A stretch of DNA of 64,000 bases from Betaproteobacteria bacterium (GCA_005881575.1 VBCA01000015.1:16322-80321); one strand, 5' to 3'. Shown: positions 4,952-19,559, counted from the stretch's first letter. Numbers and translations: made by a program. The notes: generated by a model not told the origin, from the letters alone.

Positions 4952-6184
<1,233 letters not shown>

Positions 6185-6209
6185 GCCTCGCGTCACGCGA
6201 GCCACCCCG

Positions 6210-6611
6210 TCATCGCTTCCTGTCCGCCAGCGGCGGGACGGGCCGCGGCTTGCGGTCCGTGCCGGTCGCAACGTAGGTGAGCGTCGCTTCGGTGACTTTG
6301 ACGGTTTCGATCTCGGAAGGATTGCGCTGCGCGTACACCTCGACGTAGATGGTGATGGAAGTGGTGCCGACGCGCACGATGTCGCCGTAGAAGGAAAGCA
6401 CGTCGCCGATGGATACGGGCTGCTTGAACTGGAACTCGTTGACCGCGACGGTGACCACGCGGCCGAGCGCGCGTCGCGCGGCGAGCACGCTCCCGGCGAT
6501 GTCGACCTGCGCCATGATCCAGCCGCCGAAAATGTCGCCGTGCTGGTTGGCGTCGGCCGGCATGGGCATGACGCGAAGAATAGGGTCCTTGTCTTGAGGC
6601 AGGTTCGTCAC
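6210..6611 (-). CDS. yciA: acyl-CoA thioesterase (hotdog fold, YciA-like)
   Basis: MPADANQHGDIFGGWIMAQVD. Confidence 0.9.
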   Translation of the reverse strand: MTNLPQDKDPILRVMPMPADANQHGDIFGGWIMAQVDIAGSVLAARRALGRVVTVAVNEFQFKQPVSIGDVLSFYGDIVRVGTTSITIYVEVYAQRNPSEIETVKVTEATLTYVATGTDRKPRPVPPLADRKR

Positions 6612-6620
6612 CGCGCAATG

Positions 6621-7808
6621 TTACCGTGAACGCTCCAGCGCCGCCTCGATACGCGCGATTATCGTGGCGAGTGCGGCGCCGCGCTCGTGGCGGGCGTAGC
6701 GCTTTGCGAACTCGAGCGCCTTCGCGGCGTATTCCCCTTTTTCCGTAAGCGCCGTGAGCGCGGACGCGTAATCGGCGTTCGGCACATCGGGCGCAATGCC
6801 CAGACCCGCGCCTAGGCGCACCACGCGCCTCATGATGAGGAACTGCTCGAGCTGGGTCGGCAGGAGCAGCACCGGCTTTCCGGCGAGCAGCGCCTGCGCG
6901 GTCATCTGGTGGCTCCCGTGGCATACGACGGCGTGCGCCTTCGGCAGCACCTTCGACACCGACATCGCCTCTGCAGAGAAGTCGATCAAGCCTCCGCCGT
7001 ATTTTTCCCTGAGTTTCGGGTCGATGCCGCGGCAGAAGACGAGCGTGGGCGACCCCGACGCCGCGATCGTCGCGAGCAGGGGATCCAGTCCCTTGAAGTA
7101 AGAATAGAGGTAGGCGAACAGGCGCGGGCCGGTACCCGCCGGCCAGTCGGGAACGGCCTTGCCCTCGCCGGAATCGGTGATGCCGTAGTAATCGCAGGGC
7201 CCGCGCTCGGGGTAGATATCGAGCTCGGGATAGGTGAGCAACATGGCCCGGCCGGCAAACAGCTCGCCGATGTTCGCGAGCGGACGCACGCCGTGGCCCG
7301 AGAGCACGGTGTTGATCGCATGCAGCACCCGGCGGTCCGCCGCCTCCAGGCGCGCGCGCGGCGCGGGCTCCCAATGGCGAAGCGGCGGCGAGGGCATCGC
7401 CGGCGGCGGGACGTGAAAGCCCTGCGAAATCTCGAAGCTCGGTATCCCGAGCGTCAACGCAGCGAGGTGCGCGGCGGGCGCGACGTTGGCCACCACCGCG
7501 TGCGAGCCCTTCAGGCGCTCCCGCCAGGCATCGATCAAGGCCTTGTGCTGGGGCGGATCGTGATAGCCGAAGTTGAGCAGGATCTCGCCGAGGCTGAGAG
7601 GAGCCTCGCAGGTCGGCGGCCCGGACCAGATGGGCGCGCTCTCGCGCGGAATTTCCGCCGCGCCGTCGAGGTCGGCACCCGCGGAAAGATCCCGGAGAAG
7701 GAAACGCGCGTCGTGCCCGCGCGTTTTCATCGCTGCCGCGATCGGCAGCAGGGTTGCGACGTGCCCCGTGCCCGCGCCCAGTTCCCAGGCGAAATCGATT
7801 TTCGCCAC
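6621..7808 (-). CDS. GT-B fold glycosyltransferase (GT1/UGT-like)
   Basis: N-terminal WELGAGTGH, C-terminal VVCHGS...AGKPVLLLPTQLEQ nucleotide-sugar binding signature. Confidence 0.85.
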   Translation of the reverse strand: MAKIDFAWELGAGTGHVATLLPIAAAMKTRGHDARFLLRDLSAGADLDGAAEIPRESAPIWSGPPTCEAPLSLGEILLNFGYHDPPQHKALIDAWRERLKGSHAVVANVAPAAHLAALTLGIPSFEISQGFHVPPPAMPSPPLRHWEPAPRARLEAADRRVLHAINTVLSGHGVRPLANIGELFAGRAMLLTYPELDIYPERGPCDYYGITDSGEGKAVPDWPAGTGPRLFAYLYSYFKGLDPLLATIAASGSPTLVFCRGIDPKLREKYGGGLIDFSAEAMSVSKVLPKAHAVVCHGSHQMTAQALLAGKPVLLLPTQLEQFLIMRRVVRLGAGLGIAPDVPNADYASALTALTEKGEYAAKALEFAKRYARHERGAALATIIARIEAALERSR

Positions 7809-7836
7809 TGCGATACGAGTCCTCGAAATGAAGAAG

Positions 7837-7853
7837 CCCGCCTAGAAGGCGGG
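7837..7853 (-). terminator. hairpin / weak intrinsic terminator after the FecR gene
   Basis: CCCGCCT-TCT-AGGCGGG followed by CTTCTTCATTT on the minus strand. Confidence 0.5.
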
Positions 7854-7870
7854 TGTAGCGGCTCAAGGCC

Positions 7871-8599
7871 TTACTGGACCACGCACTCCATGTTCGAGCC
7901 GGCGTTGATGCTGCTCGTCTTCAGCGTTTGCCCGAAGGTGGGCGGCGGGGTGACCTGCGGGAGATTTAGGGGTGGGGGGATCAACTTCGGAGGCAGATTG
8001 ATATTGTTGGAGAAGCCCACCTGTCCGACGCCGACCACGAGCTCAAGGCCGCCCGCAATGAACGCGATCTGCCCCTCGGCCACCGTGACGTACACCCCCG
8101 GCGGTGGCAGGTCCGATGGCGCGCTCTCGCCGGGCCCGGGCGCGGGGATGTCGATCGCCGAATAGTCGGTGCCGCGGATGCCGATGGTGGCGGTGGAGGT
8201 CAACATCCTGTAGGCGCTGCGATTGGGCGTGCGCTTGCCGATCAGCCCGGTGAGGGAACGCAGTCCGCCCCTGAAAAGCTGCATCGCGAAGCTGTCGCGC
8301 TCGGGACGGCCCTCATCGTAGCCGTACGCCTCGATCTTGACCTGAGTGCTGGGCCGCAGCGTCACCTGTCCGCCGTCGGTGAAGCGCAGCTGCGCATAGC
8401 TGTCGCGCTCGGTGGAGATCACGTCGCCGACGAAGACATCGGAGCGCTCTGCCAGAGCCAGCACCGAGCCGTCGGGTCGCTGCACGGAGAGAGTCCCCGA
8501 CAGATGCTGTACGGTGGCCTGCGCGAAGGCGAGCAGAGGGGCGAGCAGCGCAGCCGCCGCGAGAGCGCGGACGGACAGGCGAGGCGCGCTCACTTGCAT
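7871..8599 (-). CDS. FecR-domain periplasmic protein
   Basis: Signal peptide (LAFA|Q), GDVIST...[24 protein letters not shown] FecR-domain motifs; start 8599 ATG or 8593 GTG overlapping the tpsA stop. Confidence 0.85.
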
Positions 8600-11500
8600 A
8601 TCGCCGCCGCTTTCTTGTCGTCGCGCTTGTCTTTCGTCGGCGCTTCCTCGACGACGCGTGCGCCGAGGGACCCGCTCGCGGCCGTGGTGTTGTAGGCTGC
8701 GGCCACGATCGTATTGGCGAGCGGGTCGCCTGAAACGAAAGTGAACTTGGTGATATTGAGCTGGTTCGGAAACAGCGGCGCGGTCAGGCCGAGGCCGCTC
8801 GCCACCAGATGCAGCGTGCCGAAGGCGCCGATCGTGACTTCGAACGCCCCGGTGGCGGTGCTGTAGGTGAACGGCCCGTTGAGCGTCATGTCGTTCGGAA
8901 GCGTGCTGCCAAGCGAAGGACCCGCGGTCGACAGGAAGATGCCGCTCCCGGCAGTGATGCCCTGCTGGACGTCGAGCGGGCCGAAGCTGTTGATCGTCAC
9001 GTTGCCGGGGCTGCTCACGAGCGAAGTGATCGTCGTCCCGCCGTGAGCATTGAAGAGGATGTCGCCGGTCGTCGTCGTCAGCGTGTTGACGACGGCAGGC
9101 GTGGGGCCGAACGCGTTCAAGTCGATAGCGATGCCGTAGGCGGCGCTCGCGGCCAGCGCCGGAGCCGCGACGGCGAGCGGCGCCGTGGTCGAACCGATCG
9201 CGCCGCCGGCGTTGAGCGTCACTCCTGTGCCGCCTTGAACGCCGTTGCCAAGGGGGCTGCCCGATGTGGAGATTCCCGCAAGGGGGAGACCCGCAGCAGA
9301 CCTGCTGCCGGTGATGTTTCCAGTAGCCGAAATCGAAGCAAGCCTGGAGGCCGAGACCCCTTCTAGCTCCAGGTTTCCGGAGTTGTTGAAAGTGAAGTTG
9401 CCGTTGCTGGCGGAACCCTGGAGAGACTTGACGGTGTTGGTCAGATCGAGCTTGACGTCCGTGCCGGCGGCGACAAGCGAATCCGTCGTCAGCGCCGCTG
9501 TCTGGGCCTGGGTCACTGCTCCGCCCGCGACGATGTCGATCAAGCCACAACACGTGCGGGTGATTCCAGCGCCGTCGAGTCCCCCGTAGGCATTGATCGC
9601 TCCCCCGAGAGCAATGTTGCCGGGAGTGGATATCAGGAATTCACCGCCGGTGCCGCCGAGACCGATCGCGCTGCCGGTGCCGCCGTTTCCGCCGATCGCA
9701 GAGATGGGGCCCATGGATCTGGCATCTCCAGAGATCGAGATCGTTCCCGCTGCGCCGCCGTTGCCGCCCGCGCTTCCTGCGGCTCCGTTGCCGCCCGCTC
9801 CACCGTTGGCGAGGATGTTGCCGCCGACCGTTACCGATTGTCCCTTGCTGCTGATCAACACGTTCCCCGCAGAACCGCCGGAACCGCCTTGACCGACGGT
9901 CACAGTGGCCCCGTTGCCTCCAGAGGTGAGAATGCCGCCAGAAATTGCCACCGTGCCGGAGGTTGCAGTGGCAAGACTTTCGATCGTTACATCCCCGCCG
10001 CGAGAGCCGGCCACGGGTCCGTTGGGGCTGCCGTCCGCTCCGTGAGTGTCGATGAGGCCGTTGACGGTGACGTTGCCGCCGTCGGTCGCAAGCTTCACGC
10101 CGCCGCCGACCCCCAAGGTTCCACCGCTTGTGTTGATGTTGCCGACGGCGACGCCGTAACCGAGGAGATTGGCGCTCCCGCCGTTGGTCGTGATGTTGCC
10201 GAAGCCGGAACTCGAGGTGATGCTGCCGACTCCGCTCGCGGAATTCGACGCCGGATCGTTAGCCCTCAGACTGATGTTCGTGCCGTTGGCGGTGATGTTG
10301 CCGCCCAGGTTGATGTTGTTACCGGCTTGCGCGGTGAAGGCACCTCCTCCATAGGTGAGGTTCAGGTCTGTCTGCAGATTGATGTCGTGATGCGCTTGAA
10401 GGGTCACAGACCCGTTCGTGCGCAAGCCGGCATCTATCGTGCCGATCGTAATCTGAGATAGGCCCAACACGGCAGGATCGTCGAAGCAGATTCCGGCCGG
10501 GCAGGTCAGCAGATCCAGGCCGATAGCTGCGATATTTATGTCAGTCGGATCGAGCAGCCACTCGCCGCCGTTGCCGTTCGGCGCGCTCGTGTCCACGCTG
10601 CCGAATGCCTGCAGCGCCTTGCCCGAAGTCTCGACGAAACCGCCGTTGCCGCCTTGCGAGCCGCCGCGCGCGGAGATGCTGCCGAAGAACTTCGTGGACT
10701 CGTCCGACCATACGATCACGCGGCCGCCATCACCGGTGGTGCCCGCATCGGCACGGATGATTCCGTCCGAACCGATCACGGTCTGCTGCGCGTTCTGGAT
10801 GTCGGGATTGGCGCCGTGCGCGTCGCCGCCGACGAGGACCGTGCCGCCGCCCGAGTCGCCCGATGCGTCGATCACACCGTGGCCGATCACGCCGACGCGC
10901 ACGCCGAGGGCGTGGATCGTTCCGCCTTGGCCCGAGCTGCCCGTGGCCTCCACCGTTCCGGAGATGAGATTGGTGCCGCCCTGCGCTTGAAGCGTTATGG
11001 TGCCTCCGCTCGGTCCGTTGGCGGCGGTGAGGCTGCCGGCGTCCAGGGTGAGATCCCGCGTGGCGATCAGGCGGATCTCGCCGTTGGCGCCGACCACGGC
11101 GCTGTTCGCCTCCACGACGCCGCCCTGGCGCACCAGCGCGCCGAACATGCCGATGCGGCCGGAGTCGGAGATCAGTCGTCCCAGGTTGAGCGCCTGCTCG
11201 GCGTCAGCGACGATGTGCACGGTAACGAAAGGGGAATTCTCGGAGACCAGCTCCACGCTCTTGCCTGCGGCCAGCACGATCTCGCCCTGCGGGGAGCGGA
11301 TGACGCCCGAGTTTTGCACGTCCGCGCCGACCAGGAACACCCGCCCGCCCGGGCCGCCCGAGCTCGTGTCGATCACGCCGGCGTTGGAGACGGCGCCCGC
11401 GCCGGGAGTCTCGGTGAAGCGCAGCCGTCCGTTGAGGAAGTCCTGGTCGGAGAGATTCAGGCTCGAAGCGACGAATCCTGCGACGTCAATGCGCCCGGTC

Positions 11501-11886
11501 GAACCGATCACGACGCCGCTCGGGTTGATCAGGAACACCCGGCCGTTCGAGGAAAGTATCCCGTCGATCACGCTTTGCGGGATCACTCCGTTCGCGCCTA
11601 CCACGCGGTTGAGCACCGCCGAGGAACCCGAGGACTGCAGGAACTGCGTGATCTCGTTGACGCCGATCGAGAAGCCCTGCCAGTTGATGATGGCGCCGGC
11701 GCTGTTGGTGATCGTCAGCGTGTTGCCCGAGCTCGCGAAGGTCGCGCTGCCCGAGCTGACCGTGCCGCCCGTGGGATTGGCGAGACTCGGTCCATTGGAA
11801 AGACCGAAGCAGGCGGCCACCGAGAGCGCGATCAGCTTGGGCTTGAAATCGACTCGTCGCCTGCGCTTGGCGCTGGAACTGGACAT
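8590..11886 (-). CDS. TpsA / filamentous-haemagglutinin N-terminal domain exoprotein
   Basis: Signal peptide, TPS domain ([25 protein letters not shown]), [13 protein letters not shown], Gly/Ser/Thr-rich beta-helix repeats. Confidence 0.93.
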
Positions 11887-11902
11887 GGCTACCCCCCGAT
11901 AG

Positions 11903-11938
11903 ACTTCATTTCCGCAGCAAACTTCATTCCCGCAGCAA
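11903..11938. repeat. 2 x 18-bp tandem repeat in tpsA leader
   Basis: ACTTCATTTCCGCAGCAA / ACTTCATTCCCGCAGCAA (1 mismatch). Confidence 0.85.
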
Positions 11939-11949
11939 ACGGGAAACTC

Positions 11950-11993
11950 ATTCTAGACCCCGGTCGCAGGCGTGGCATGTGACTTTTCGCACA
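11950..11993 (-). promoter_or_regulatory. sigma-70 promoter of tpsA with adjacent CRP-family site
   Basis: -10 TAGAAT (11950-11955), 17-bp spacer, -35 ATGCCA (11973-11978); TGTGA-CTTTTC-GCACA at 11978-11993 (9/10 to TGTGA-N6-TCACA). Confidence 0.6.
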
Positions 11994-12004
11994 AGCGGTC
12001 CGCC

Positions 12005-13708
12005 TCAAAAGCTGTAAGCGACAGCGGCATGGGCCCGGTATTCTCCCTTCAGACGGGTGCCCGCATCCTGGGTGACCCGCGCGACATCGAGCCGGAACGC
12101 GAAGGACTTGCCCTGGTTCGCGCGTACGCCCAGGCCGAAGCTCCCGAGCTTGTTTTCCGGGCCGCGCTCCGGAATATTGTCGTGGCCGCGCGCCGCGTCG
12201 TAGAACACGAGCGCCCGCGCGCGCCAGGTGCTGCCGATCCACGATCCGAAATCCGGGCCGTAGCCCTCGAGCGAGAACCGCCGGCCGACGTCGCTCGCCG
12301 TCTCGCGCTCGTAGTAACCGCGCACGCTGTCGGCGCCGCCCATCCCGAATTGCTCGCCCGGGACGAGCAGGTCGCGGGTCTGCTGGGCGTTCGCGGCCGC
12401 GCGCAGGATGAAATCCGAAGGCAGCACCTGCGAGAAGACGACACCTGCGCGCCAGATTGAATATTTGGCCGAAGCGCCGGCGCGCGCAGGGCGCCTGACT
12501 GGGTTTCCGTTGCTATCCACGACTAGGTTTCCGCTGCTATCCAGGATTCCAGTGAAGGCTTCCTGATCGCCGTTAGGTCCACCGGGAATGTTGCGCGAGT
12601 AGGAGACGTTGAAGGACAAATCCCGCCCGACCTGCGACGCGCGGCCGATGTAGGTGAGCGAGACCGGCCGGACCGTGATGTCCGGAACCTCTGACTGGCC
12701 AGAATCCGCGAAAATGACGCTGTTCTTGTACGCGCGGTAATCCCATCCGAGCGCGACCCGATGTTCGTGGCTATCGATCCGCCCCAGCAGTTGCGTGTAG
12801 CGCAGCCCGAAGACCGTCCCTTTGCCCGACACGGTGAAATCATTCAGCACCGTGCCCGAATTGACGCTCGAATACCCGGCGAGGACATCGACGACGCCGC
12901 TCAATTTGTATACGGGCACGCGGTATGCGGCGCCGAAGACCTTCACGTCGGACGCGTGGCCCGGGGAGCTGAGGTACTGCGCATTGATCACGTCGTCGCC
13001 GTTGAAGAGGTTCGCGTTCTGGTAGCCGAGGCCGGTGCGCAAGTTACCGGTCGCCGGAGTGCCGGTGTTGTCCGCGGACATCGAGACCCTGGAGGGTTTT
13101 TCGTCCGTGACGCGAACGGTCGCGTCGACCTGGCCGGGGTCGTCAGCGGCCTGCAGCGCCACGCTCACTTGCTTGGCCGGGTTCTCGTTCACGAGCTGGG
13201 CGTGCTGGCCGATCGCGCGCGTGTTCGGGGAGGTGCCTTCTTTCAGCGAAGGCAGGCCCGCCCTGACGTTCTTTTCGTCGAAAAAGCGATTGCCCTGTAT
13301 CTGCACGCGCCGGATCCGCGCCTCGACCACGCGCAAACGCACCTGGCCGGAGCGAATGTCCTGCTCGGGAACGCTCACGCGCACCGCGTTGTAGCCGCGG
13401 CGGGTGTAGACATCCTGCAGCGCTTCGAGCGCGCGCTGAATGTGTCCGAAGTCGCGGTCCTTTCCGGAGAAGGGCGCGAGAATCCTGTCGAGTTCCCCTT
13501 GCGAAAGGATCGTATTTCCGTCGACGAGAAAACGCTGGATCGTGAACCGCGGCGGGGCCGGCGGCTTGGAGGGCGCCGCGACCGGAGCCTGTGACTGCGG
13601 TCTGGGAGGCTGCGGCTTCGTCGGCGCCTGAGCAATTGCGCTGCTCGCGCACAGCGCGAACAGCGATACGAGCAAACGCAGCGCGCCCACCGTTGGTGTT
13701 GGAGCCAC
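12005..13708 (-). CDS. TpsB (ShlB/FhaC/HecB) outer-membrane transporter
   Basis: Signal peptide, POTRA (GNTIL...YTRRGY), DNTG, GGADSVRGY (VRGY motif), C-terminal Phe. Confidence 0.93.
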   Translation of the reverse strand: MAPTPTVGALRLLVSLFALCASSAIAQAPTKPQPPRPQSQAPVAAPSKPPAPPRFTIQRFLVDGNTILSQGELDRILAPFSGKDRDFGHIQRALEALQDVYTRRGYNAVRVSVPEQDIRSGQVRLRVVEARIRRVQIQGNRFFDEKNVRAGLPSLKEGTSPNTRAIGQHAQLVNENPAKQVSVALQAADDPGQVDATVRVTDEKPSRVSMSADNTGTPATGNLRTGLGYQNANLFNGDDVINAQYLSSPGHASDVKVFGAAYRVPVYKLSGVVDVLAGYSSVNSGTVLNDFTVSGKGTVFGLRYTQLLGRIDSHEHRVALGWDYRAYKNSVIFADSGQSEVPDITVRPVSLTYIGRASQVGRDLSFNVSYSRNIPGGPNGDQEAFTGILDSSGNLVVDSNGNPVRRPARAGASAKYSIWRAGVVFSQVLPSDFILRAAANAQQTRDLLVPGEQFGMGGADSVRGYYERETASDVGRRFSLEGYGPDFGSWIGSTWRARALVFYDAARGHDNIPERGPENKLGSFGLGVRANQGKSFAFRLDVARVTQDAGTRLKGEYRAHAAVAYSF

Positions 13709-13720
13709 CTCGACCCTCCC

Positions 13721-15661
13721 TCAGGAATTTCCGGCCTTGGTCTTCATATAGTTCAGCGGTCCGCCGCGGAAGGGCGCGAAACCGGTAGCGAAGATGAGTC
13801 CCGCGTCGACGAGGTCGGCGTCGGCGACGATGCCTTCGGCGACGACGGCCCGAGCTTCCTCGAGGTAGGGCGCGATGAGCTTATCGGTGAGTTCGGGCGT
13901 GGCGCCGCGCGCGGCGCCTTTGCGCGCCTTGCCGTTCTGCCAGACGTAGTAGCCGCGGCCGGTTTTCTTGCCGAGATTTCCCGCGGCGACGAGTTCCGCG
14001 AGTTTTCTCGGGGGTTCTGCGCTTTCGCCCGCCAATTCCTTGCCCACCGCGAGGCAGATGTCGAGGCCCACCGTATCGGCGAGCTCGATCGGCCCCATCG
14101 GCATGCCGAACGCCGTGACCGCCGCGTCGAGCGTCTCCCGCGCGACGCCTTCGTCCACCATGCGCAGCGCCTGGTCGATGTAGGGACCGAGCACGCGATT
14201 GACGAGAAAACCCGGCGAGTCCTTGACCGGCAGGGGCAGTTTATCGATCTGCCGCACGAAGGCCGCCGCCCGCTTCGCGACTCCCGAGTCGGTGGCCGCG
14301 CCCTTGACCACTTCGACCAGCTGCAACTGCGGCACCGGGTTGAAGAAATGGATTCCCACGAGGCGCGACGGATCCTCGAATTTCGCGCCGATATCGGCGA
14401 GCTTGAGGCTCGATGTGTTCGAGGCGAGGAGCGCCTCCGGCTTCGCCGCCGCTTCGAGCTTCGCGAACAGCTCGCGCTTCGCCTGCAGGTTCTCGAAAAT
14501 CGCCTCGATGACGACGTCCGCATGCCGCGCTCCGTCCCCGGCGACGTCGGGAATCAACCGGTCGAGCGCATCCCGGATCCGGGATTTGTCGCGAAGCCGG
14601 CGTTTGAAAAGCTCGGTCGCGCGCTTCATCGCCGGCGCGAGGCGCTCGGCCGACTGGTCCTGAAGAGTCACCGTCAGGCCGCGCATCGCGCACCAGGCGG
14701 CGATGTCTCCGCCCATGACGCCCGCGCCGACCACGTGAACGTGTTGCGCCTTGAAGTCGCTGTCCTTTCCGAGCGATTTCAGGCGCTCCTGGAGGAAGAA
14801 GATGCGGATGAGGTTGCGCGCGGTATCGCCCTCGAGAAGCCCGATGACCGACGCCGGGTCCTCGGGTCGCGGCGCGAACGGATCGCCGTCGTATCTCCGC
14901 CACAGCTCGAGGATCGCGTAAGGCGCGGGATAATGATCCGGCGAGGCCCGGGAAGCGAGCTCCCTTCTCGCGAGGTGAACGACGAGCGGACGCATCAGGC
15001 CGGAATTCATCAGCCGCTGGAAGAGTGGCAGTGTTCTCGGGCGGGGCGCCTCGAGCACGATCACGCGCGCGGCGTTGTCCTGGATACGCGGCGGCACCGC
15101 CTCGTCGACGAGACCCAGACGCTTCGCGCGGCGCGCGTCCACGGCCCGCCCCGTGAGCAGCATGTCGAGCGCCGCAGTCGGGCCGACGAGGCGCGGCAGG
15201 CGCTTGACGCCGCCCCAGCCCGGAAGGATGCCGAGCATCACTTCGGGAAGCGCAAAGCGCGTTCCGGGCTGATCCACCGCGACGCGATAGCGGCAGGCGA
15301 GCGCGAGCTCGACGCCCCCGCCCATGCAGAAGCCGTTGACGAGCGCAAGCGTCGGGAACGGCAAGGCCGCGAGTTTGTTGTAGAGATCCCAGCCGCGCTT
15401 GACCAGGCGCATCGCTTCGTCCGCGTCCTTGATCCGGGTGAACTCCTCGACGTCGGCGCCCGCGATGAACCCGGAGTCCTTGGCGGAGCGGATGATGAGC
15501 CCACGCGGATTCTTCGCGCGCAGCTCGTCGAAAATCCGGTCGAGCTCTGCCATCGCGTCGGCGGACAGGACGTTCGCGGATGCGTCCTTCTTGTCGAACG
15601 ACAGCCAGACGATGTTGTCGCGGTCGGTCTCGAGCTTCCAGTGCTGGTAGCTGTCCACCAT
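13721..15661 (-). CDS. fadJ: enoyl-CoA hydratase / 3-hydroxyacyl-CoA dehydrogenase
   Basis: FIAGAD, GGGVELALAC, GAGVMGGDIA, HFFNP, GFAPFRGGP; start 15661 or 15670. Confidence 0.92.
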   Translation of the reverse strand: MVDSYQHWKLETDRDNIVWLSFDKKDASANVLSADAMAELDRIFDELRAKNPRGLIIRSAKDSGFIAGADVEEFTRIKDADEAMRLVKRGWDLYNKLAALPFPTLALVNGFCMGGGVELALACRYRVAVDQPGTRFALPEVMLGILPGWGGVKRLPRLVGPTAALDMLLTGRAVDARRAKRLGLVDEAVPPRIQDNAARVIVLEAPRPRTLPLFQRLMNSGLMRPLVVHLARRELASRASPDHYPAPYAILELWRRYDGDPFAPRPEDPASVIGLLEGDTARNLIRIFFLQERLKSLGKDSDFKAQHVHVVGAGVMGGDIAAWCAMRGLTVTLQDQSAERLAPAMKRATELFKRRLRDKSRIRDALDRLIPDVAGDGARHADVVIEAIFENLQAKRELFAKLEAAAKPEALLASNTSSLKLADIGAKFEDPSRLVGIHFFNPVPQLQLVEVVKGAATDSGVAKRAAAFVRQIDKLPLPVKDSPGFLVNRVLGPYIDQALRMVDEGVARETLDAAVTAFGMPMGPIELADTVGLDICLAVGKELAGESAEPPRKLAELVAAGNLGKKTGRGYYVWQNGKARKGAARGATPELTDKLIAPYLEEARAVVAEGIVADADLVDAGLIFATGFAPFRGGPLNYMKTKAGNS

Positions 15662-15666
15662 GACGG

Positions 15667-16986
15667 TCACAGCGCCTCGACCAGCATCGCCCCGCCGAGG
15701 CCCCCGCCGATGCAGATCGAGGCCATGCCGCGCCGCGGCCTTTGGCGGGCGGTGCCGGCGCGCTTGAGCACATGCAGCAGATGCAGCACGATGCGCGCGC
15801 CCGAGGCGCCTACCGGGTGGCCGAGCGCGATGGCGCCGCCGTCGACGTTGAGTTTTCCGCCATCGAGCTCGCCCAGCGCACGGTCCAGGCCCAGCTCCTC
15901 GCGGCAGTACTTGTCCTCCTTCCACGCCGTGAGGCAGCCGAGCACCTGGGCCGCGAACGCTTCGTTGATCTCCCAGGCATCGAGGTCGTTGAGCTCGAGG
16001 CCGTGGCGCTCGAGTATCGGTGTCGCGGCGTGCACCGGTCCGAGACCCATCTGCGCCGGATCCAGGCCCGCCCACTGCGAATCGACGATCCGGCCGAGCG
16101 GCTTCAGATCGTGGCGCTTCACGGCCTCCTCGGTCGCGAGCACCAGCCACGCCGCGCCATCGGTGATCTGCGAGGAATTTCCCGCGGTGACGTTGCCGTA
16201 CTTCCGGTCGAAAAAGGGTTTGAGCTTCGCAAGATTCTCGGCCGTCGAATCCTTTCGAACGCCGTCATCGTCCCGGTAGAGGTTTCCCTCGTCGTAGATC
16301 GGCGTGATTTCCGCCGGCAGACCGTCATGCGGGTTGCTGAATGCGCCGCTCTCCTGCGCGCGAATGACGCGGGCGTGGCTCTCCGCGGCGTATTCGTCCA
16401 TTTGGCGGCGACCGATCCCGAAACGATAAGCGACATTCTCGGCCGTTTGACCCATGAGAAGGCCCACGTAGGGGTCGGTCAGGCCTTTCATGATGCCGAT
16501 GATGGGCGAGAGCAGTTGAGCGGGTTTCAATTTCAGGAACATGCCGGCGCGCTGGAGGGAGGTCTTCGCGGCCATGTAGTTCGAGAACCAAATGACCATG
16601 GCTTCCGAGTAGAGGAGCGGCACGCGCGAGAGCGCGTCCACGCCGCCCGCGAGGACCAGGTTCGAGCGCCCCGAGAGCATGTTGGCTACGCCTGAATCGA
16701 GCGCCTGCATGCCGGAGGCGCAGTTGCGCATCACGGTCCAGCCCGGGACCTTCTGCCCGCAGCCCATGCGCAGCGCAGCGACCCGCCCGATATTGACTTC
16801 GTCCACCGAGGGCGCCGCGCAGCCGAGGATCACCTCGTCGAGCTCCGTCGGTGCGAAGGGCTGTCGCACGAGCAGGGCTTTGCCCGCGGCGGTCGCGAGG
16901 TCGCTCGCGGAGAAGGGGCCCGGCCGGTTGCGCGATTTCAGAAACGGCGTGCGCGCGCCGTCGATGATGTAGATGTCCTTGGGCAT
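15667..16986 (-). CDS. fadI: acetyl-CoA C-acyltransferase (thiolase)
   Basis: RTPF, NCASG, NEAFA, GHPVGASG, CIGGG. Confidence 0.92.
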   Translation of the reverse strand: MPKDIYIIDGARTPFLKSRNRPGPFSASDLATAAGKALLVRQPFAPTELDEVILGCAAPSVDEVNIGRVAALRMGCGQKVPGWTVMRNCASGMQALDSGVANMLSGRSNLVLAGGVDALSRVPLLYSEAMVIWFSNYMAAKTSLQRAGMFLKLKPAQLLSPIIGIMKGLTDPYVGLLMGQTAENVAYRFGIGRRQMDEYAAESHARVIRAQESGAFSNPHDGLPAEITPIYDEGNLYRDDDGVRKDSTAENLAKLKPFFDRKYGNVTAGNSSQITDGAAWLVLATEEAVKRHDLKPLGRIVDSQWAGLDPAQMGLGPVHAATPILERHGLELNDLDAWEINEAFAAQVLGCLTAWKEDKYCREELGLDRALGELDGGKLNVDGGAIALGHPVGASGARIVLHLLHVLKRAGTARQRPRRGMASICIGGGLGGAMLVEAL

Positions 16987-17005
16987 CGTGCCTCCGATGA
17001 CGGGA

Positions 17006-17097
17006 AAACCGGGGACAGACCCCTATTTTTGATTCCTATTTTTGATCACGCATCGTATGAAAGCAACTCGGGGAAAATAGGGGTCTGTCCCCGGTTT
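17006..17097. repeat. REP/MITE-like element with perfect 24-bp inverted repeats
   Basis: AAACCGGGGACAGACCCCTATTTT (17006-17029) and its exact reverse complement (17074-17097). Confidence 0.85.
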
Positions 17098-19559
17098 CAA
17101 GCGGCGGCGCGCTGAGGTTGCGCGGGCCGGAGCGCTTCGGACAGTCCGAGATCCTGCGGGAAATGGTCCACGCGGATCACCTCGTCGCGCAGCTCCGCTG
17201 CGCGCTTGAGCAGGGCTTGCTCCTCGGCGCCGATGACATGCGCGGCGAGCGCAGCCTGCGCGAGCTCCTCGGCGGTTCTGCCGCGTATCGCCCCGGATTT
17301 CTGGGCCGCGCGGATCCTGGCCTCGACCGCTTCGGCCTTGATCGCCGCGTCGAGCGCGGCTTCTAGGCACCCGAGCGGTTCGCTCTCAGGCGTAGGGAGG
17401 TACATGCCGGCGCAAAGCCGGTCGCGAGCCGCCGACGGCGCGATGAGCAAGCGCGCGACTTCGTGCCCGAGCGCGTCGCTCGGTGGCGCGAAGTGCCGGC
17501 CGAGCGGGAAAGTCGCGAGGCGCAGGAACGAGCCGACCGCCCGCACCGGATAGTTCGCGAGCACCGCGTGCAGGGCTTCGGCCGCGCGGAACAGGGTATC
17601 CTGGAGCGACCAGTCGAGGAAGGGAAGATCGGCCTCCTGCCGGCCCTCGTCCTCGAAGCGCTTGAGCGTGGCCGAGGCAAGGTAGAGCATGGACAGTACG
17701 TCGCCCAGGCGCGCGGAGATCCTTTCCCGGCGCTTCAGCGACCCTCCGAGTACGAGCATCGAGATGTCGGCCGCATAGGCGAACGCGGCGGAAATCCGCG
17801 TGAGTTGCCGGTAGTAGCGGCGCGTCCGGGGCGCAGCCTTGGGCGAAACGGAAACGAAGCGCGATCCGGTGATCGCCATGAGAAAGGCGCGCGTTTCGTT
17901 CGAAATGACGTGCCGGATGTGACCGAACAACGCGGCGTCGAAGCTCTTAAGATCACCCGCGCGCGCGGCGTTCATTTCCTTCAGCACGTAGGGATGGCAG
18001 CGGATTGCCCCCTGACCGAAGACGATGAGGTTGCGTGTCAGGATGTTGGCGCCCTCGACCGTGATTGCGATGGGCAGCTGCTGGTAGATTCGTCCCAGGA
18101 AGTTGTTGGGGCCGAGGCAGATTCCCTTGCCGCCGAGGATGTCCATCGCGTCGTTGACTACGGCTCGTCCGCGCTCGGTGAGGTGGTACTTGACGATCGC
18201 CGAGATCACCGAGGGTTTTTCGCCGAGGTCGACCGCGCCCGCGGTCATCGTGCGCGCGGCGTCCATCACGTAAAGGTTGCCGCCGATGCGCGCGAGCGCT
18301 TCCTCGATCCCCTCGAATTTTCCGATCGGCGTCTTGAACTGGCTGCGCACGCGCGCGTAGGCGCCGGTCGCGCGCGCGGCGAGCTTGGCGTAGCCCGTCC
18401 CCGAGGAAGGCAGCGAGATCGAACGTCCCGCGGCGAGGCACTCCATCAGCATCCTCCAGCCCTGGCCCGCCATTTTCGGCCCGCCGATGATCCAGTCGAG
18501 GGGCATGAACACGTCCTTGCCCCAGTTCGGCCCGTTCTGGAACACCGAGTTGAGAGGGTTGTGCCGCCGGCCGATGTTGACGCCCGGCGTGTCGGTGCGC
18601 ACCAGCGCGCAGGTGATGCCGATGTCTTCCTTCTCTCCGAGGAGATGGTCGGGATCGTGGAGGCGGAAAGCGAGCCCGAGCAGCGTGGAGATGGGACCCA
18701 GCGTGATATAGCGCTTCTCCCAGCTGACGCGCATGCCCAGCACTTCGCGGCCTTCCCAGATTCCCTTGCACACGATGCCCAAATCGGGAATCGACGCGGC
18801 GTCCGAGCCCGCGTGCGGATTGGTGAGGCCGAAGCAGGGAATTTCGAGTCCTTTCGCGAGGCGCGGCAGGGTGTGGTTCTTCTGCTCCTCGGTGCCGTAG
18901 TGAAGCAACAGCTCGGCAGGCCCGAGGGAATTCGGAACCATGACGTGCACCGTTGCCGCGCTGCACCGCGTCGCGAGCTTCTGGATCACCTGCGAATGCA
19001 TGGTCGCGGAGAACTCCTTGCCGCCGTATTTCTTCGGGATGATCATCCCGAGGAAGCCCTTGTCCTTGATGAACTGCCACGCGTGCGGCGGCAGATCCTG
19101 ATAGATCTGCGTCGTCTCCCAGTCGTTTACCATCGCGCACAACTGCTCGGTCTCGTTGTCGAGGAAAGACTGCTCCTCGGCGGTGAGCTTCGGCCGCGGC
19201 AGCGCGAGCAGCTTTCCCCAGTCGGGGCGGCCGGAGAAAAGATCGCCATCCCACCACACGGTGCCGGCGTCGATCGCCTCCTGCTCGGTCTGGGACATTG
19301 CGGGAAGCTGGCCGCGATACCACGCGAGAAGGGGGCGCGAAACGAGCAAACGGCGCAAGGGCGTCGCGCCCAGCAGGACACTGCAAAAGACGAACAGTCC
19401 GGCGAGCACGGAGAAAGCATCCATTGCGAACGCTCCTCCGGCCAGGCCGGCGGGAAGCGCCACCGCGCCCGCGGCGATCCAGATCCATCCCGGCGATTTC
19501 AGATAGGCGAGCGCGAATGAAACGGCAACGACGGCGACGATCCAGGCAGCGACCGGCAT
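17097..19559 (-). CDS. fadE: acyl-CoA dehydrogenase FadE
   Basis: N-terminal TM helices, AGTVWWDG, PNSLGPAELL, ITVEGANILTR, C-terminal VIRVDHF; GGAGG RBS before 19559. Confidence 0.95.
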   Translation of the reverse strand: MPVAAWIVAVVAVSFALAYLKSPGWIWIAAGAVALPAGLAGGAFAMDAFSVLAGLFVFCSVLLGATPLRRLLVSRPLLAWYRGQLPAMSQTEQEAIDAGTVWWDGDLFSGRPDWGKLLALPRPKLTAEEQSFLDNETEQLCAMVNDWETTQIYQDLPPHAWQFIKDKGFLGMIIPKKYGGKEFSATMHSQVIQKLATRCSAATVHVMVPNSLGPAELLLHYGTEEQKNHTLPRLAKGLEIPCFGLTNPHAGSDAASIPDLGIVCKGIWEGREVLGMRVSWEKRYITLGPISTLLGLAFRLHDPDHLLGEKEDIGITCALVRTDTPGVNIGRRHNPLNSVFQNGPNWGKDVFMPLDWIIGGPKMAGQGWRMLMECLAAGRSISLPSSGTGYAKLAARATGAYARVRSQFKTPIGKFEGIEEALARIGGNLYVMDAARTMTAGAVDLGEKPSVISAIVKYHLTERGRAVVNDAMDILGGKGICLGPNNFLGRIYQQLPIAITVEGANILTRNLIVFGQGAIRCHPYVLKEMNAARAGDLKSFDAALFGHIRHVISNETRAFLMAITGSRFVSVSPKAAPRTRRYYRQLTRISAAFAYAADISMLVLGGSLKRRERISARLGDVLSMLYLASATLKRFEDEGRQEADLPFLDWSLQDTLFRAAEALHAVLANYPVRAVGSFLRLATFPLGRHFAPPSDALGHEVARLLIAPSAARDRLCAGMYLPTPESEPLGCLEAALDAAIKAEAVEARIRAAQKSGAIRGRTAEELAQAALAAHVIGAEEQALLKRAAELRDEVIRVDHFPQDLGLSEALRPAQPQRAAA

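Follow-up and report, generated by a model that had tools for sequence, protein, structure and literature searches.

Introduction

Among the closest described counterparts of the locus treated here, a tpsB-tpsA-fecR-glycosyltransferase gene set at positions 6621-13708 of a 64,000-nucleotide (nt) stretch of DNA from a Betaproteobacteria bacterium (GCA_005881575.1 VBCA01000015.1:16322-80321; hereafter the window), is the NsrA-CyaD1/CyaD2/CyaK-Clr pathway of Sinorhizobium meliloti. According to the excerpts available of two articles, NsrA is an outer-membrane (OM) component that CHASE2 cyclases require for their response to a plant protein signal (PMC7529298, PMC13001267), and the FecR-domain protein SMc02177 was described as a target of Clr (PMC5498481). 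The present locus would share with this pathway a periplasmic FecR domain attached to an OM component, CHASE2 cyclases and a Crp-family regulator. NsrA is the sole studied OM input to CHASE2 domains that was found.

FecR-domain proteins and CHASE2 receptors are encoded together in further bacteria. Excerpts of the respective articles report a LysM-FecR protein encoded with a CHASE2 kinase in Burkholderia (PMC5192318) and, in Campylobacterota, a cluster of a CHASE2 cyclase, a phosphodiesterase (PDE), a FecR-domain OM protein and a tetratricopeptide repeat (TPR) protein (PMC9239204). The Burkholderia 'BiofilmReg' type (PA4035-like; COG4254) resembles the present locus in its secreted FecR-domain protein encoded with a CHASE2 receptor, but it features a LysM domain and a histidine-kinase output and has no two-partner secretion (TPS, type Vb) genes, and a terminal cysteine motif is not reported for it. 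The retention of exported adhesins is likewise described in the accessible parts of the literature: HMW1 and HxuA keep their C-termini in the periplasm, locked there by a disulfide (PMC5422565), CdrA is held by a 'cysteine hook', and the structure 5ix9 is the template for the LapA retention module, which keeps its adhesin plugged in the OM pore (both bioRxiv 10.1101/198937). An association of the FecR-type system PUMA3 (vreA-vreI-vreR) with tpsA and tpsB genes was stated for several genera in the excerpt available of PMC2729926.

The explanation that we consider best for the present locus, and to which we give an even chance of being right, is that tpsB-tpsA-fecR encodes a disulfide-tethered filament on a periplasmic FecR-fold handle, which retains TpsA and couples it to a cyclase, with feedback of cyclic AMP (cAMP) and Crp on tpsA-fecR. 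Signalling from FecR to CHASE2 of the NsrA type is a known kind of system; the combination with cysteine-anchored TPS adhesins is new in that it was not found described in print. Among the literature matches listed, there was neither a TPS/FecR/CHASE2 module nor a CHASE2-TPS combination, Vre/PUMA3 was the sole relevant association found between FecR and TpsA, and CdrA was the adhesin named with the 'cysteine hook' in titles and abstracts.

The tpsB-tpsA-fecR triad and its conservation

The high-GC window lies on an 85-kb contig (C76) of a genome of 3.8 Mb in 86 contigs. Open reading frame (ORF) listing, translation and Pfam searches recovered the four co-oriented minus-strand genes named in the initial annotation, i.e., tpsB, a tpsA for a protein of 1098 amino acids (aa), a fecR-like gene and a glycosyltransferase (GT) gene (Table 1). 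The overlap of the fecR start with the tpsA stop was found as claimed and amounts to 10 nt, with the ATG and TGA lying within ATGCAAGTGA. TpsB matches POTRA_2 (PF08479, E 1e-19) and ShlB (PF03865, E 1e-19), and TpsA features a signal peptide followed by the TPS domain PF05860 (E 1.6e-20; TIGR01901, E 8.5e-16) with the motifs NPTG at residue 37 and NPSG at 121; the two adjoining genes provide both partners of a type Vb system. No toxin or contact-dependent inhibition (CDI) tip family was seen in TpsA by Pfam, the TPS domain being its sole match, in agreement with the initial annotation. Moreover, TpsA matches EtpA (8vba, E 1.3e-53, residues 19-610), HMW1 (2odl, E 1e-43) and HxuA, and it is predicted from these sequence matches to belong to the adhesin/binding class, not to the CDI class. 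The divergence of the exoprotein is much faster than that of the neighbouring gene products, which is in line with its exposure: in one related locus (L117), TpsA is 69% identical compared with 86% for FecR and 89% for GT, and in another (L143), 48% compared with 81% for FecR.

Conservation was surveyed at the level of the order in 401 genomes, 192 of which contained FecR homologues at E<=1e-10. About 20 kb were fetched around 40 FecR matches, and after calling and clustering of the genes, a short FecR gene was called in 32 loci. Directly upstream of fecR, 18/32 loci have a co-oriented ORF of 890-3239 aa, which is TpsA by tblastn wherever the locus includes its N-terminus and is usually preceded by TpsB. 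In 12/32 loci, this position is taken by a gene for a Crp/Fnr-family regulator predicted to bind cyclic nucleotide monophosphates, often with TpsB, alone or together with TpsA, further upstream and with ftsK-lolA-rarA-serS on the downstream side, and in 2/32 by another neighbour. By tblastn of the order-level loci, TpsB and/or TpsA were located upstream in 14/20 and 8/14. Among 73 metagenome loci of close relatives (FecR identity 44-96% in the best segment), the genes retain the order fadB-tpsB-tpsA-fecR-GT-thioesterase, TpsA precedes fecR in 36 of the 39 loci with enough upstream DNA, and the 10-nt overlap of tpsA stop and fecR start is preserved in 33/34 loci. A further set of 80 loci from named assemblies showed TPS genes upstream in 37/80 (33/51 where at least 5 kb of upstream DNA were present), a Crp-like gene at most 2 kb upstream of fecR in 36/80 and at least one of the two in 66/80. 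The order and named-assembly surveys draw on overlapping collections, with one genome per species in each, and related genomes are not independent, so that these counts overstate the independent support. The tpsB-tpsA-fecR set is a module conserved across the order, and the co-occurrence of TPS and FecR genes on which the initial annotation had staked its signalling idea is widespread.

A third context of FecR domains is the N-terminus of long proteins (993-1484 aa), each encoded after a gene for a TPR-SlipAM (Slam-like) barrel, and a TPR-GT41 gene is present in 3/4 of these loci. As a side observation, L061, L063, L064, L066, L081-L083, L085, L087 and L088 feature a TPR-SlipAM barrel gene followed by proteins of 528-1584 aa which end in ..G(T/V)A(A/L)(F/L)x(R/Q). 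Their FecR domain is N-terminal or split off as a protein of 146-155 aa just before, and a TPR-GT41 gene is often near. Such proteins may be Slam-exported and hold a periplasmic FecR handle.

Lone cysteines at the ends of TpsA and FecR

A cysteine is found within the last four residues of TpsA in 19/19 cases of the order survey (the window included), 34/34 of the metagenome set and 29/29 of the named-assembly set, compared with 9/473 other predicted proteins of the same loci. The large ORFs upstream of fecR end in, e.g., ..AAAICK, ..KKAKKC, ..KMYCN, ..GVCKAA or ..VAQCT; the tails ahead of the cysteine are basic or acidic and of low complexity, and the C-terminal ~200-220 residues are otherwise not alignable between genera. 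Mature TpsA of the window contains five cysteines, an odd number, at positions 462, 467, 779, 780 and 1097. Cys1097 is the sole one in the last 318 residues, with those at 779 and 780 being the nearest others.

The short FecR family has an ending of its own, x-C-[VIT]-[VIM]-x, behind a variable Pro-rich linker. In the window protein, which ends in ..ECVVQ, Cys239 (codon 7883-7885) is the only cysteine, and it is one of 21 invariant columns in an alignment of 32 sequences (32/32). The terminal cysteine is present in 33/33 short FecRs of the order survey, in 55/55 full-length metagenome copies, in 8/8 relatives with two domains and a length of 447-503 aa (Gallionella, Sideroxydans, Limnobacter, Caldimonas, Symbiobacter and others) and in 79/80 named-assembly loci, where the exception (L192) is without the usual ending and is suspected to result from an assembly or frame error.

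A lone invariant cysteine on the FecR tail together with a lone invariant cysteine at the end of TpsA that is exported last most simply suggests an intermolecular disulfide between Cys239 and Cys1097, by which FecR would be joined to an OM component as in systems of the NsrA type. The paired terminal cysteines and their reading as a tether were not part of the initial annotation. As in HMW1, HxuA and CdrA, the C-terminus of an HMW1/EtpA/HxuA-like TpsA would be periplasmic and disulfide-locked. In those anchors, however, two cysteines in one tail form an intramolecular loop, whereas the window TpsA offers Cys1097 alone at its C-terminus and the other cysteine is located on a second protein. Pairing of the terminal cysteine with TpsB or the CHASE2 domain was considered and rejected, as mature TpsB has no cysteine and none is conserved in the periplasmic domain of the CHASE2 cyclase. 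Additionally, a LapG-type di-alanine site in the TpsA tail (..KKAAAVCK) was dropped as a candidate, being limited to the close clade.

Genomes in which fecR has no adjoining tpsA encode Cys-tailed TpsAs elsewhere, as seen in all four with readable TpsA ends (G193, G195, G106 and G152; 4/4); G195 and G106 each also have a TpsA of ~3200 aa without a Cys tail. Besides, several genomes (L106, L107, L108, L109, L111, L103) were observed to hold at least two TpsAs with a basic tail plus cysteine and one Cys-tailed FecR gene among the listed matches. Several Cys-tailed TpsAs per single FecR suggest that one FecR may serve several filaments.

Fold of the FecR-like protein

The FecR-like protein matches PF04773 (E 1.3e-9) and begins with a cleavable-type signal peptide (..LLAFA/QA) without a lipobox. 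Its model, based on a 32-row alignment (predicted local distance difference test, 79.5; predicted template modelling score, 0.73), features a two-lobed beta structure at about residues 28-207 and a Pro-rich tail which is disordered from residue 225 onwards (225-242). A Foldseek search with the model ranked the C-terminal cell-surface-signalling domain (CCSSD) of PupR first (6ovk, E 3e-6) and a periplasmic anti-sigma domain of Parabacteroides second (4m0h, E 1e-4), followed by the 'cell surface anchoring domain' 5ix9 (TM 0.79 of target, root-mean-square deviation 0.9 A over 63 columns). The family profile also matches 5ix9 by sequence (E 1.6e-4), and the NCBIfam model retention_LapA gives 28.7 bits, which is under its cut-off of 50 bits.

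The locus thus possesses the periplasmic FecR/CCSSD fold of FecR-type anti-sigma regulators (PF04773, 6ovk, 4m0h) and, as in Vre/PUMA3, a FecR-family gene associated with TPS genes. Unlike these regulators, and unlike the true extracytoplasmic function (ECF) system Vre/PUMA3, it has no cytoplasmic anti-sigma domain or transmembrane helix, since the 242-aa protein opens with the signal peptide and has nothing before it; translation, alignment and model agree with the initial annotation on this point. That annotation had further noted that an ECF sigma factor is missing, as is a TonB-dependent transducer, and neither was found near the FecR gene on contig C76, where the TonB-receptor plug domain and sigma-70 region 2 have 0 matches each, compared with 6 and 12 genome-wide. 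With the retention module of LapA and MpIBP (5ix9), the protein shares the design of a small beta domain that would serve as a periplasmic plug, and the profile and fold similarity concerns its N-terminal lobe. That module, however, is fused to the N-terminus of a repeats-in-toxin (RTX) adhesin of the type I secretion system and is released by LapG, whereas here no such fusion is present and a separate Sec-exported protein, with no established LapG-type site, is encoded beside a type Vb system.

A comparison with NsrA was made through S. meliloti Rm41, in which the ORF abutting cyaK encodes 1216 aa with a FecR domain (E 1.6e-15), TPR repeats and a C-terminal part of ~600 aa; by its position and size, we presume this ORF to be NsrA. 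The FecR domains are weakly similar (26% identity over 149 residues, pairwise E 0.002). Unlike the presumed NsrA, which is a single polypeptide, the FecR protein of the window is separate, the OM part consists of TpsB/TpsA, and the attachment would be a disulfide. In strain R11, the corresponding frame upstream of cyaK on pSymB is broken into unannotated ORFs of 721 and 308 aa (L269:3833-7383, compared with L270:1733-5383 for the intact ORF of Rm41), which is due to a difference between the strains or to faulty sequencing.

Linkage to a CHASE2 cyclase and a Crp-like regulator

The receptor that the initial annotation had placed elsewhere in the genome has a candidate, as three CHASE2 proteins are encoded there and one of them is an adenylate cyclase on contig C46. 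It belongs to an island (C46:29874-37244; L009:7875-15245) of a CHASE2-Ser/Thr kinase, PP2C, FHA, the CHASE2-adenylate cyclase and a class-II cAMP PDE, with no FecR gene nearby. The same gene order was observed in L091, L092 and L081, and in L081 it is directly followed by a TPR-SlipAM gene and a gene for a 544-aa FecR protein. The N-terminal transmembrane segment of the cyclase (LKQHIVRIALGLLVVLVF.., C46:34028-34210) lies upstream of the first ATG, GTG or TTG of its frame, and alignment with L091 and L092 suggests that CTG or another rare codon is probably the start. Another CHASE2 protein, a CHASE2-SpoIIE phosphatase (C81:22015-26644; L010), has, as neighbours, an OmpA-family protein and a FecR protein of 162 aa without a terminal cysteine encoded on the opposite strand. 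In addition, a 285-aa FecR protein on C51 (104563-107684; L007) is followed by a Tll0287-like/HAMP membrane protein and a 449-aa ORF, the N-terminus of which looks by eye like a Ser/Thr kinase; this would be a FecR-linked sensor without CHASE2.

Full-length orthologues of the C46 cyclase (42-75% identity) were found in 212/401 genomes at E<=1e-40. The cyclase is contiguous with tpsB-tpsA-fecR in L054, L090+L069, L086, L089 and L076; in L086 the order is tpsB-tpsA-fecR-cyclase with a gap of 30 nt between fecR and cyclase, and the string of L089 additionally holds a PDE and a Crp-like gene. It also lies beside tpsB-tpsA-fecR in 6/80 named loci, i.e., in Massilia soli, M. alkalitolerans, M. yuzhufengensis, M. 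agrisoli, Massilia sp. PDC64 and Telluria sp. Altogether, 11 other genomes present the cyclase in one string with the triad. In the source genome, the cyclase and PDE (C46) and the Crp-like gene (C70) are unlinked to the FecR gene, so that the NsrA-type association of a CHASE2 cyclase and a Crp regulator with a FecR gene is seen through the linkage in other genomes. By hand cross-reading, the cyclase is present in 55/58 genomes with a FecR match at E<=1e-30, compared with 212/401 overall; the three without it are G008 (68% complete), G119 (82% complete) and G202. The tallies include the unpublished genomes G205, G294 and G379, with G205 counted in both the 58 and the 55; the analysed loci all come from other genomes.

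The Crp-like orthologue of the source genome (C70, 54% identical) is located between trxB and ftsK, at a site without fecR, though other genera have crp-fecR-ftsK exactly there. A CRP-type palindrome lies in the 118-nt spacer between tpsB and tpsA (Table 1). It is the sole TGTGA-N6-TCACA match with at most one mismatch in the window, where 0.41 would be expected (~0.001 for that spacer), and it is centred ~42.5 nt upstream of where the promoter-like site would place the start; class II activation by CRP is centred near -41.5. In close relatives, the box position is kept with at most one mismatch in 15 of the first 19 spacers listed. It recurs in distant relatives with different spacer letters, being perfect in L047, with one mismatch in L046/L243 and L195 and with two in L183, L191, L196 and L229. 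Massilia-type spacers, in which the cyclase heads the string, have 4-5 mismatches to the box and are random-like. The box finds a parallel in S. meliloti, where the FecR-domain protein SMc02177 is a Clr target. Prediction of a complex of FecR residues 27-242 with residues 2-378 of the C46 CHASE2 domain scored 0.01 and 0.00, without controls, and argues neither for nor against contact. Judged by gene context, the core triad is tied to a predicted CHASE2 cyclase, a PDE and a Crp-like regulator.

Proposed mechanism and competing explanations

In the tether model, TpsB would export the EtpA/HMW1-like beta-helical TpsA, the Lys-rich C-terminal tail of which, with its lone cysteine, would remain on the periplasmic side. 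The translationally coupled FecR-fold protein, also ending in a lone cysteine on a flexible Pro-rich tail, would be joined to it by an intermolecular disulfide, and its folded domain would be a stopper by which TpsA stays threaded through TpsB, thus resembling a 'cysteine hook' combined with a LapA-type retention module in trans. The same domain may serve as a handle that passes events at the filament on to the CHASE2 adenylate cyclase (C46, beside the cAMP PDE). The cAMP formed would act via the Crp-like regulator (C70), which probably acts on the promoter of tpsA-fecR by way of the CRP-type box, driving it, and would thereby close a feedback. In the sub-clade of the window, GT probably glycosylates TpsA. 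The signalling idea of the initial annotation, according to which TpsA is a surface sensor whose periplasmic tail is read by FecR and relayed to an inner-membrane receptor encoded elsewhere, is partly supported by this gene context, and the paired cysteines suggest a covalent tether where that annotation had a mere reading of the tail.

A further-reaching version is put forward tentatively, as a possibility that we would not rate as probable. Here, the two proteins would form a disulfide-stitched trans-envelope sensor in which a pull on, or a ligand at, the filament evokes a response of the CHASE2 cyclase and Crp, with cAMP-Crp feeding back, in the service of adhesion or mechano-sensing. The module would be exchangeable with the Slam barrel plus long FecR and with the fused NsrA, and one FecR would serve several TpsAs. 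If this is true, a cAMP pathway would have its input arm in a widespread family of TPS 'adhesins' from Betaproteobacteria of soil and freshwater (Massilia, Sulfuritalea, Nitrotoga and many uncultured lineages), such pairs would have a simple sequence marker in the lone terminal cysteine of both partners, and type Vb exoproteins would have a third solution to retention, beside the intramolecular cysteine hook and the fused retention module.

Several observations weigh against the tether model. In 12/32 loci, fecR has no adjacent tpsA. Five genomes without a FecR match formed a small negative control: three lack TPS domains altogether and one has a TpsA without the cysteine, but the fifth (G015; L266, C14; 98% complete), with no FecR match at E<=1e-10, encodes a 1271-aa TpsA ending in ..AFHFACR. 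TpsA-FecR fusions were not seen among the best 120 of 434 longer homologues (425-2000 aa searched, all FecR-annotated), which is weak evidence. A lone cysteine could instead give homodimers or bear another modification. The cyclase can do without the triad: by subtraction, it occurs in 157/343 genomes without a close FecR match, and it is found at 75% identity in the same-genus genome G363, the best FecR match of which reaches just E 4.6e-19. In the source genome, it sits on another contig. Other genomes pair it with a TPR-SlipAM barrel and a FecR protein (L081-L083, L085, L087, L088); the occurrence of the same cyclase with different modules suggests that the OM module is exchangeable. Moreover, the CRP-type box implies that the triad may simply be an output of cAMP-Crp, and that alone could explain the gene linkage.

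The latter argument leads to the main rival, in which the FecR fold is only an anchor. It would be a retention module in trans, attached by a disulfide or otherwise, and cAMP-Crp would regulate expression of the adhesin, in analogy to c-di-GMP regulating LapA and CdrA, with no outside-in signal to the cyclase. The similarity to 5ix9, the sub-threshold retention_LapA match, the terminal cysteines, the conserved CRP-type box ahead of tpsA and the cysteine-based anchors described in excerpts for HMW1, HxuA and CdrA (PMC5422565, bioRxiv 10.1101/198937) are all consistent with it. Nevertheless, we regard it as unlikely, although still to be taken seriously, because, for the whole model, FecR/PupR signalling domains are a closer match than just the anchoring domain and the cyclase itself, beyond its regulator, shares the gene string of the triad in the 11 genomes mentioned. 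Furthermore, FecR-domain proteins are repeatedly paired with CHASE2 receptors (C81 in the source genome, and PMC5192318 and PMC9239204 according to their excerpts), and the accessible part of PMC7529298 reports that the cyclases need NsrA for their response to an external signal.

If FecR were instead a periplasmic helper, i.e., a chaperone, a secretion checkpoint or a Cys-Cys homodimer that aids export or folding of TpsA via TpsB, without tether or signalling, the translational coupling, which implies matched production, would be accounted for, as would the fold match to FecR/PupR domains that bind OM partner domains; a lone cysteine is equally able to homodimerize. This explanation is improbable in our view, since it leaves unexplained both the retention of the terminal TpsA cysteine in a C-terminus that otherwise diverges freely and the linkage to cyclase, PDE and Crp, and fecR does not adjoin tpsA in the 12/32 loci cited above. 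A remnant of classical cell-surface signalling, in which a FecR-type anti-sigma factor has an ECF sigma factor as well as a TonB-dependent transducer for partners, like Vre/PUMA3 of Pseudomonas aeruginosa controlling a TPS operon, could appeal to the FecR Pfam domain and to the association of PUMA3 with tpsA and tpsB genes in the excerpt of PMC2729926. It is hardly credible given the signal peptide, the missing cytoplasmic anti-sigma and transmembrane parts and the lack of sigma-70 region 2 and TonB plug domains across contig C76; neither turned up among the conserved neighbour clusters whose representatives were scanned.

Glycosyltransferase and further features of the locus

The initial annotation had counted GT as part of the cassette, which applies to the sub-clade of the window and fails at the level of the order, where tblastn found it in 0/40 loci; GT as a universal member was therefore rejected. 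It lies downstream of fecR in 42/44 close-relative metagenome loci with enough DNA and in 12/80 named loci. In L193-L196 and L236 (FecR 53-60% identical), GT is directly downstream of fecR and no match to the fadB, acyl-CoA dehydrogenase and thioesterase flanks was found; this retention of GT without those flanks marks it as a cassette member of the sub-clade. Next to GT, the close clade keeps the 4HBT thioesterase gene, which had no match in L193-L196 and L236 and is context outside the cassette. A terminator-like hairpin between fecR and GT (Table 1) is present in all 42 distinct fecR-GT spacers folded, with varying loops. Its conservation suggests that tpsA-fecR transcription ends or is attenuated there and that GT is probably a separate transcription unit.

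By Pfam, GT matches EryCIII-like_C (E 3e-9) with an EryCIII/MGT-like C-terminal half, and among GT1-type UDP-glycosyltransferases it matches YjiC (E 4e-5), again in the C-terminal half only. The cassette resembles the HMW1ABC and EtpBAC operons in combining an HMW1/EtpA-like TpsA with a glycosyltransferase gene, but HMW1C and EtpC are GT41 enzymes, whereas the match here is of GT1 type. It is a guess, by analogy with HMW1C/EtpC though from a different GT family, that GT glycosylates TpsA in this sub-clade.

Table 1. Features of the tpsB-tpsA-fecR locus and its surroundings (window coordinates)
Feature	Position	Strand	Description
tpsB	12005-13708	-	567 aa, predicted OM TPS transporter: signal peptide, POTRA, ShlB/FhaC barrel
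CRP-type palindrome TGTGCGAAAAGTCACA	11978-11993	-	in tpsB-tpsA spacer
Sigma-70-like promoter match ATGCCA-17-TAGAAT	11950-11978	-	consensus match; 1 found vs 0.6 expected
Tandem direct repeat GTTTGCTGCGG(G/A)AATGAA x2	11903-11940	-	in presumed tpsA leader, between promoter-like site and start codon
tpsA	8590-11886	-	1098 aa, EtpA/HMW1-like, predicted beta-helical exoprotein; TPS domain residues 37-248
TpsA C-terminal tail	8593-8667	-	Lys/Asp-rich, conserved terminal Cys1097 (codon 8596-8598)
fecR start/tpsA stop overlap	8599-8590	-	10 nt
fecR-like gene	7871-8599	-	242 aa, predicted periplasmic protein with signal peptide
GC-rich hairpin CCCGCC-TTCTA-GGCGGG, then CTTCTTCATT	7827-7853 (stem 7853-7837)	-	terminator-like, T-rich tail, between fecR and GT
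GT-B glycosyltransferase gene	6621-7808	-	395 aa, predicted cytoplasmic, GT1/EryCIII/YjiC-like in C-terminal half
4HBT thioesterase gene	6210-6611	-	fifth co-oriented gene, begins 10 nt past GT stop
Acyl-CoA dehydrogenase gene	4952-6184	+	flank

The flanks consist of fatty-acid oxidation genes, with a fadB-like gene (-) and a thiolase gene (-) besides the acyl-CoA dehydrogenase gene, as read by eye from the translations. An Rfam scan of window positions 5900-17200 gave nothing at E<=0.1. Parts of GT, of the 5' region of tpsA and of tpsB are matched at 90-99% by contigs of one metatranscriptome run (X20); the library may contain DNA, and such contigs cannot show transcription starts. Close copies occur in soil metagenomes and in metagenome-assembled genomes labelled Betaproteobacteria or Burkholderiales, and the 19 DNA runs which hold at least half of the sampled words are all soil metagenomes.

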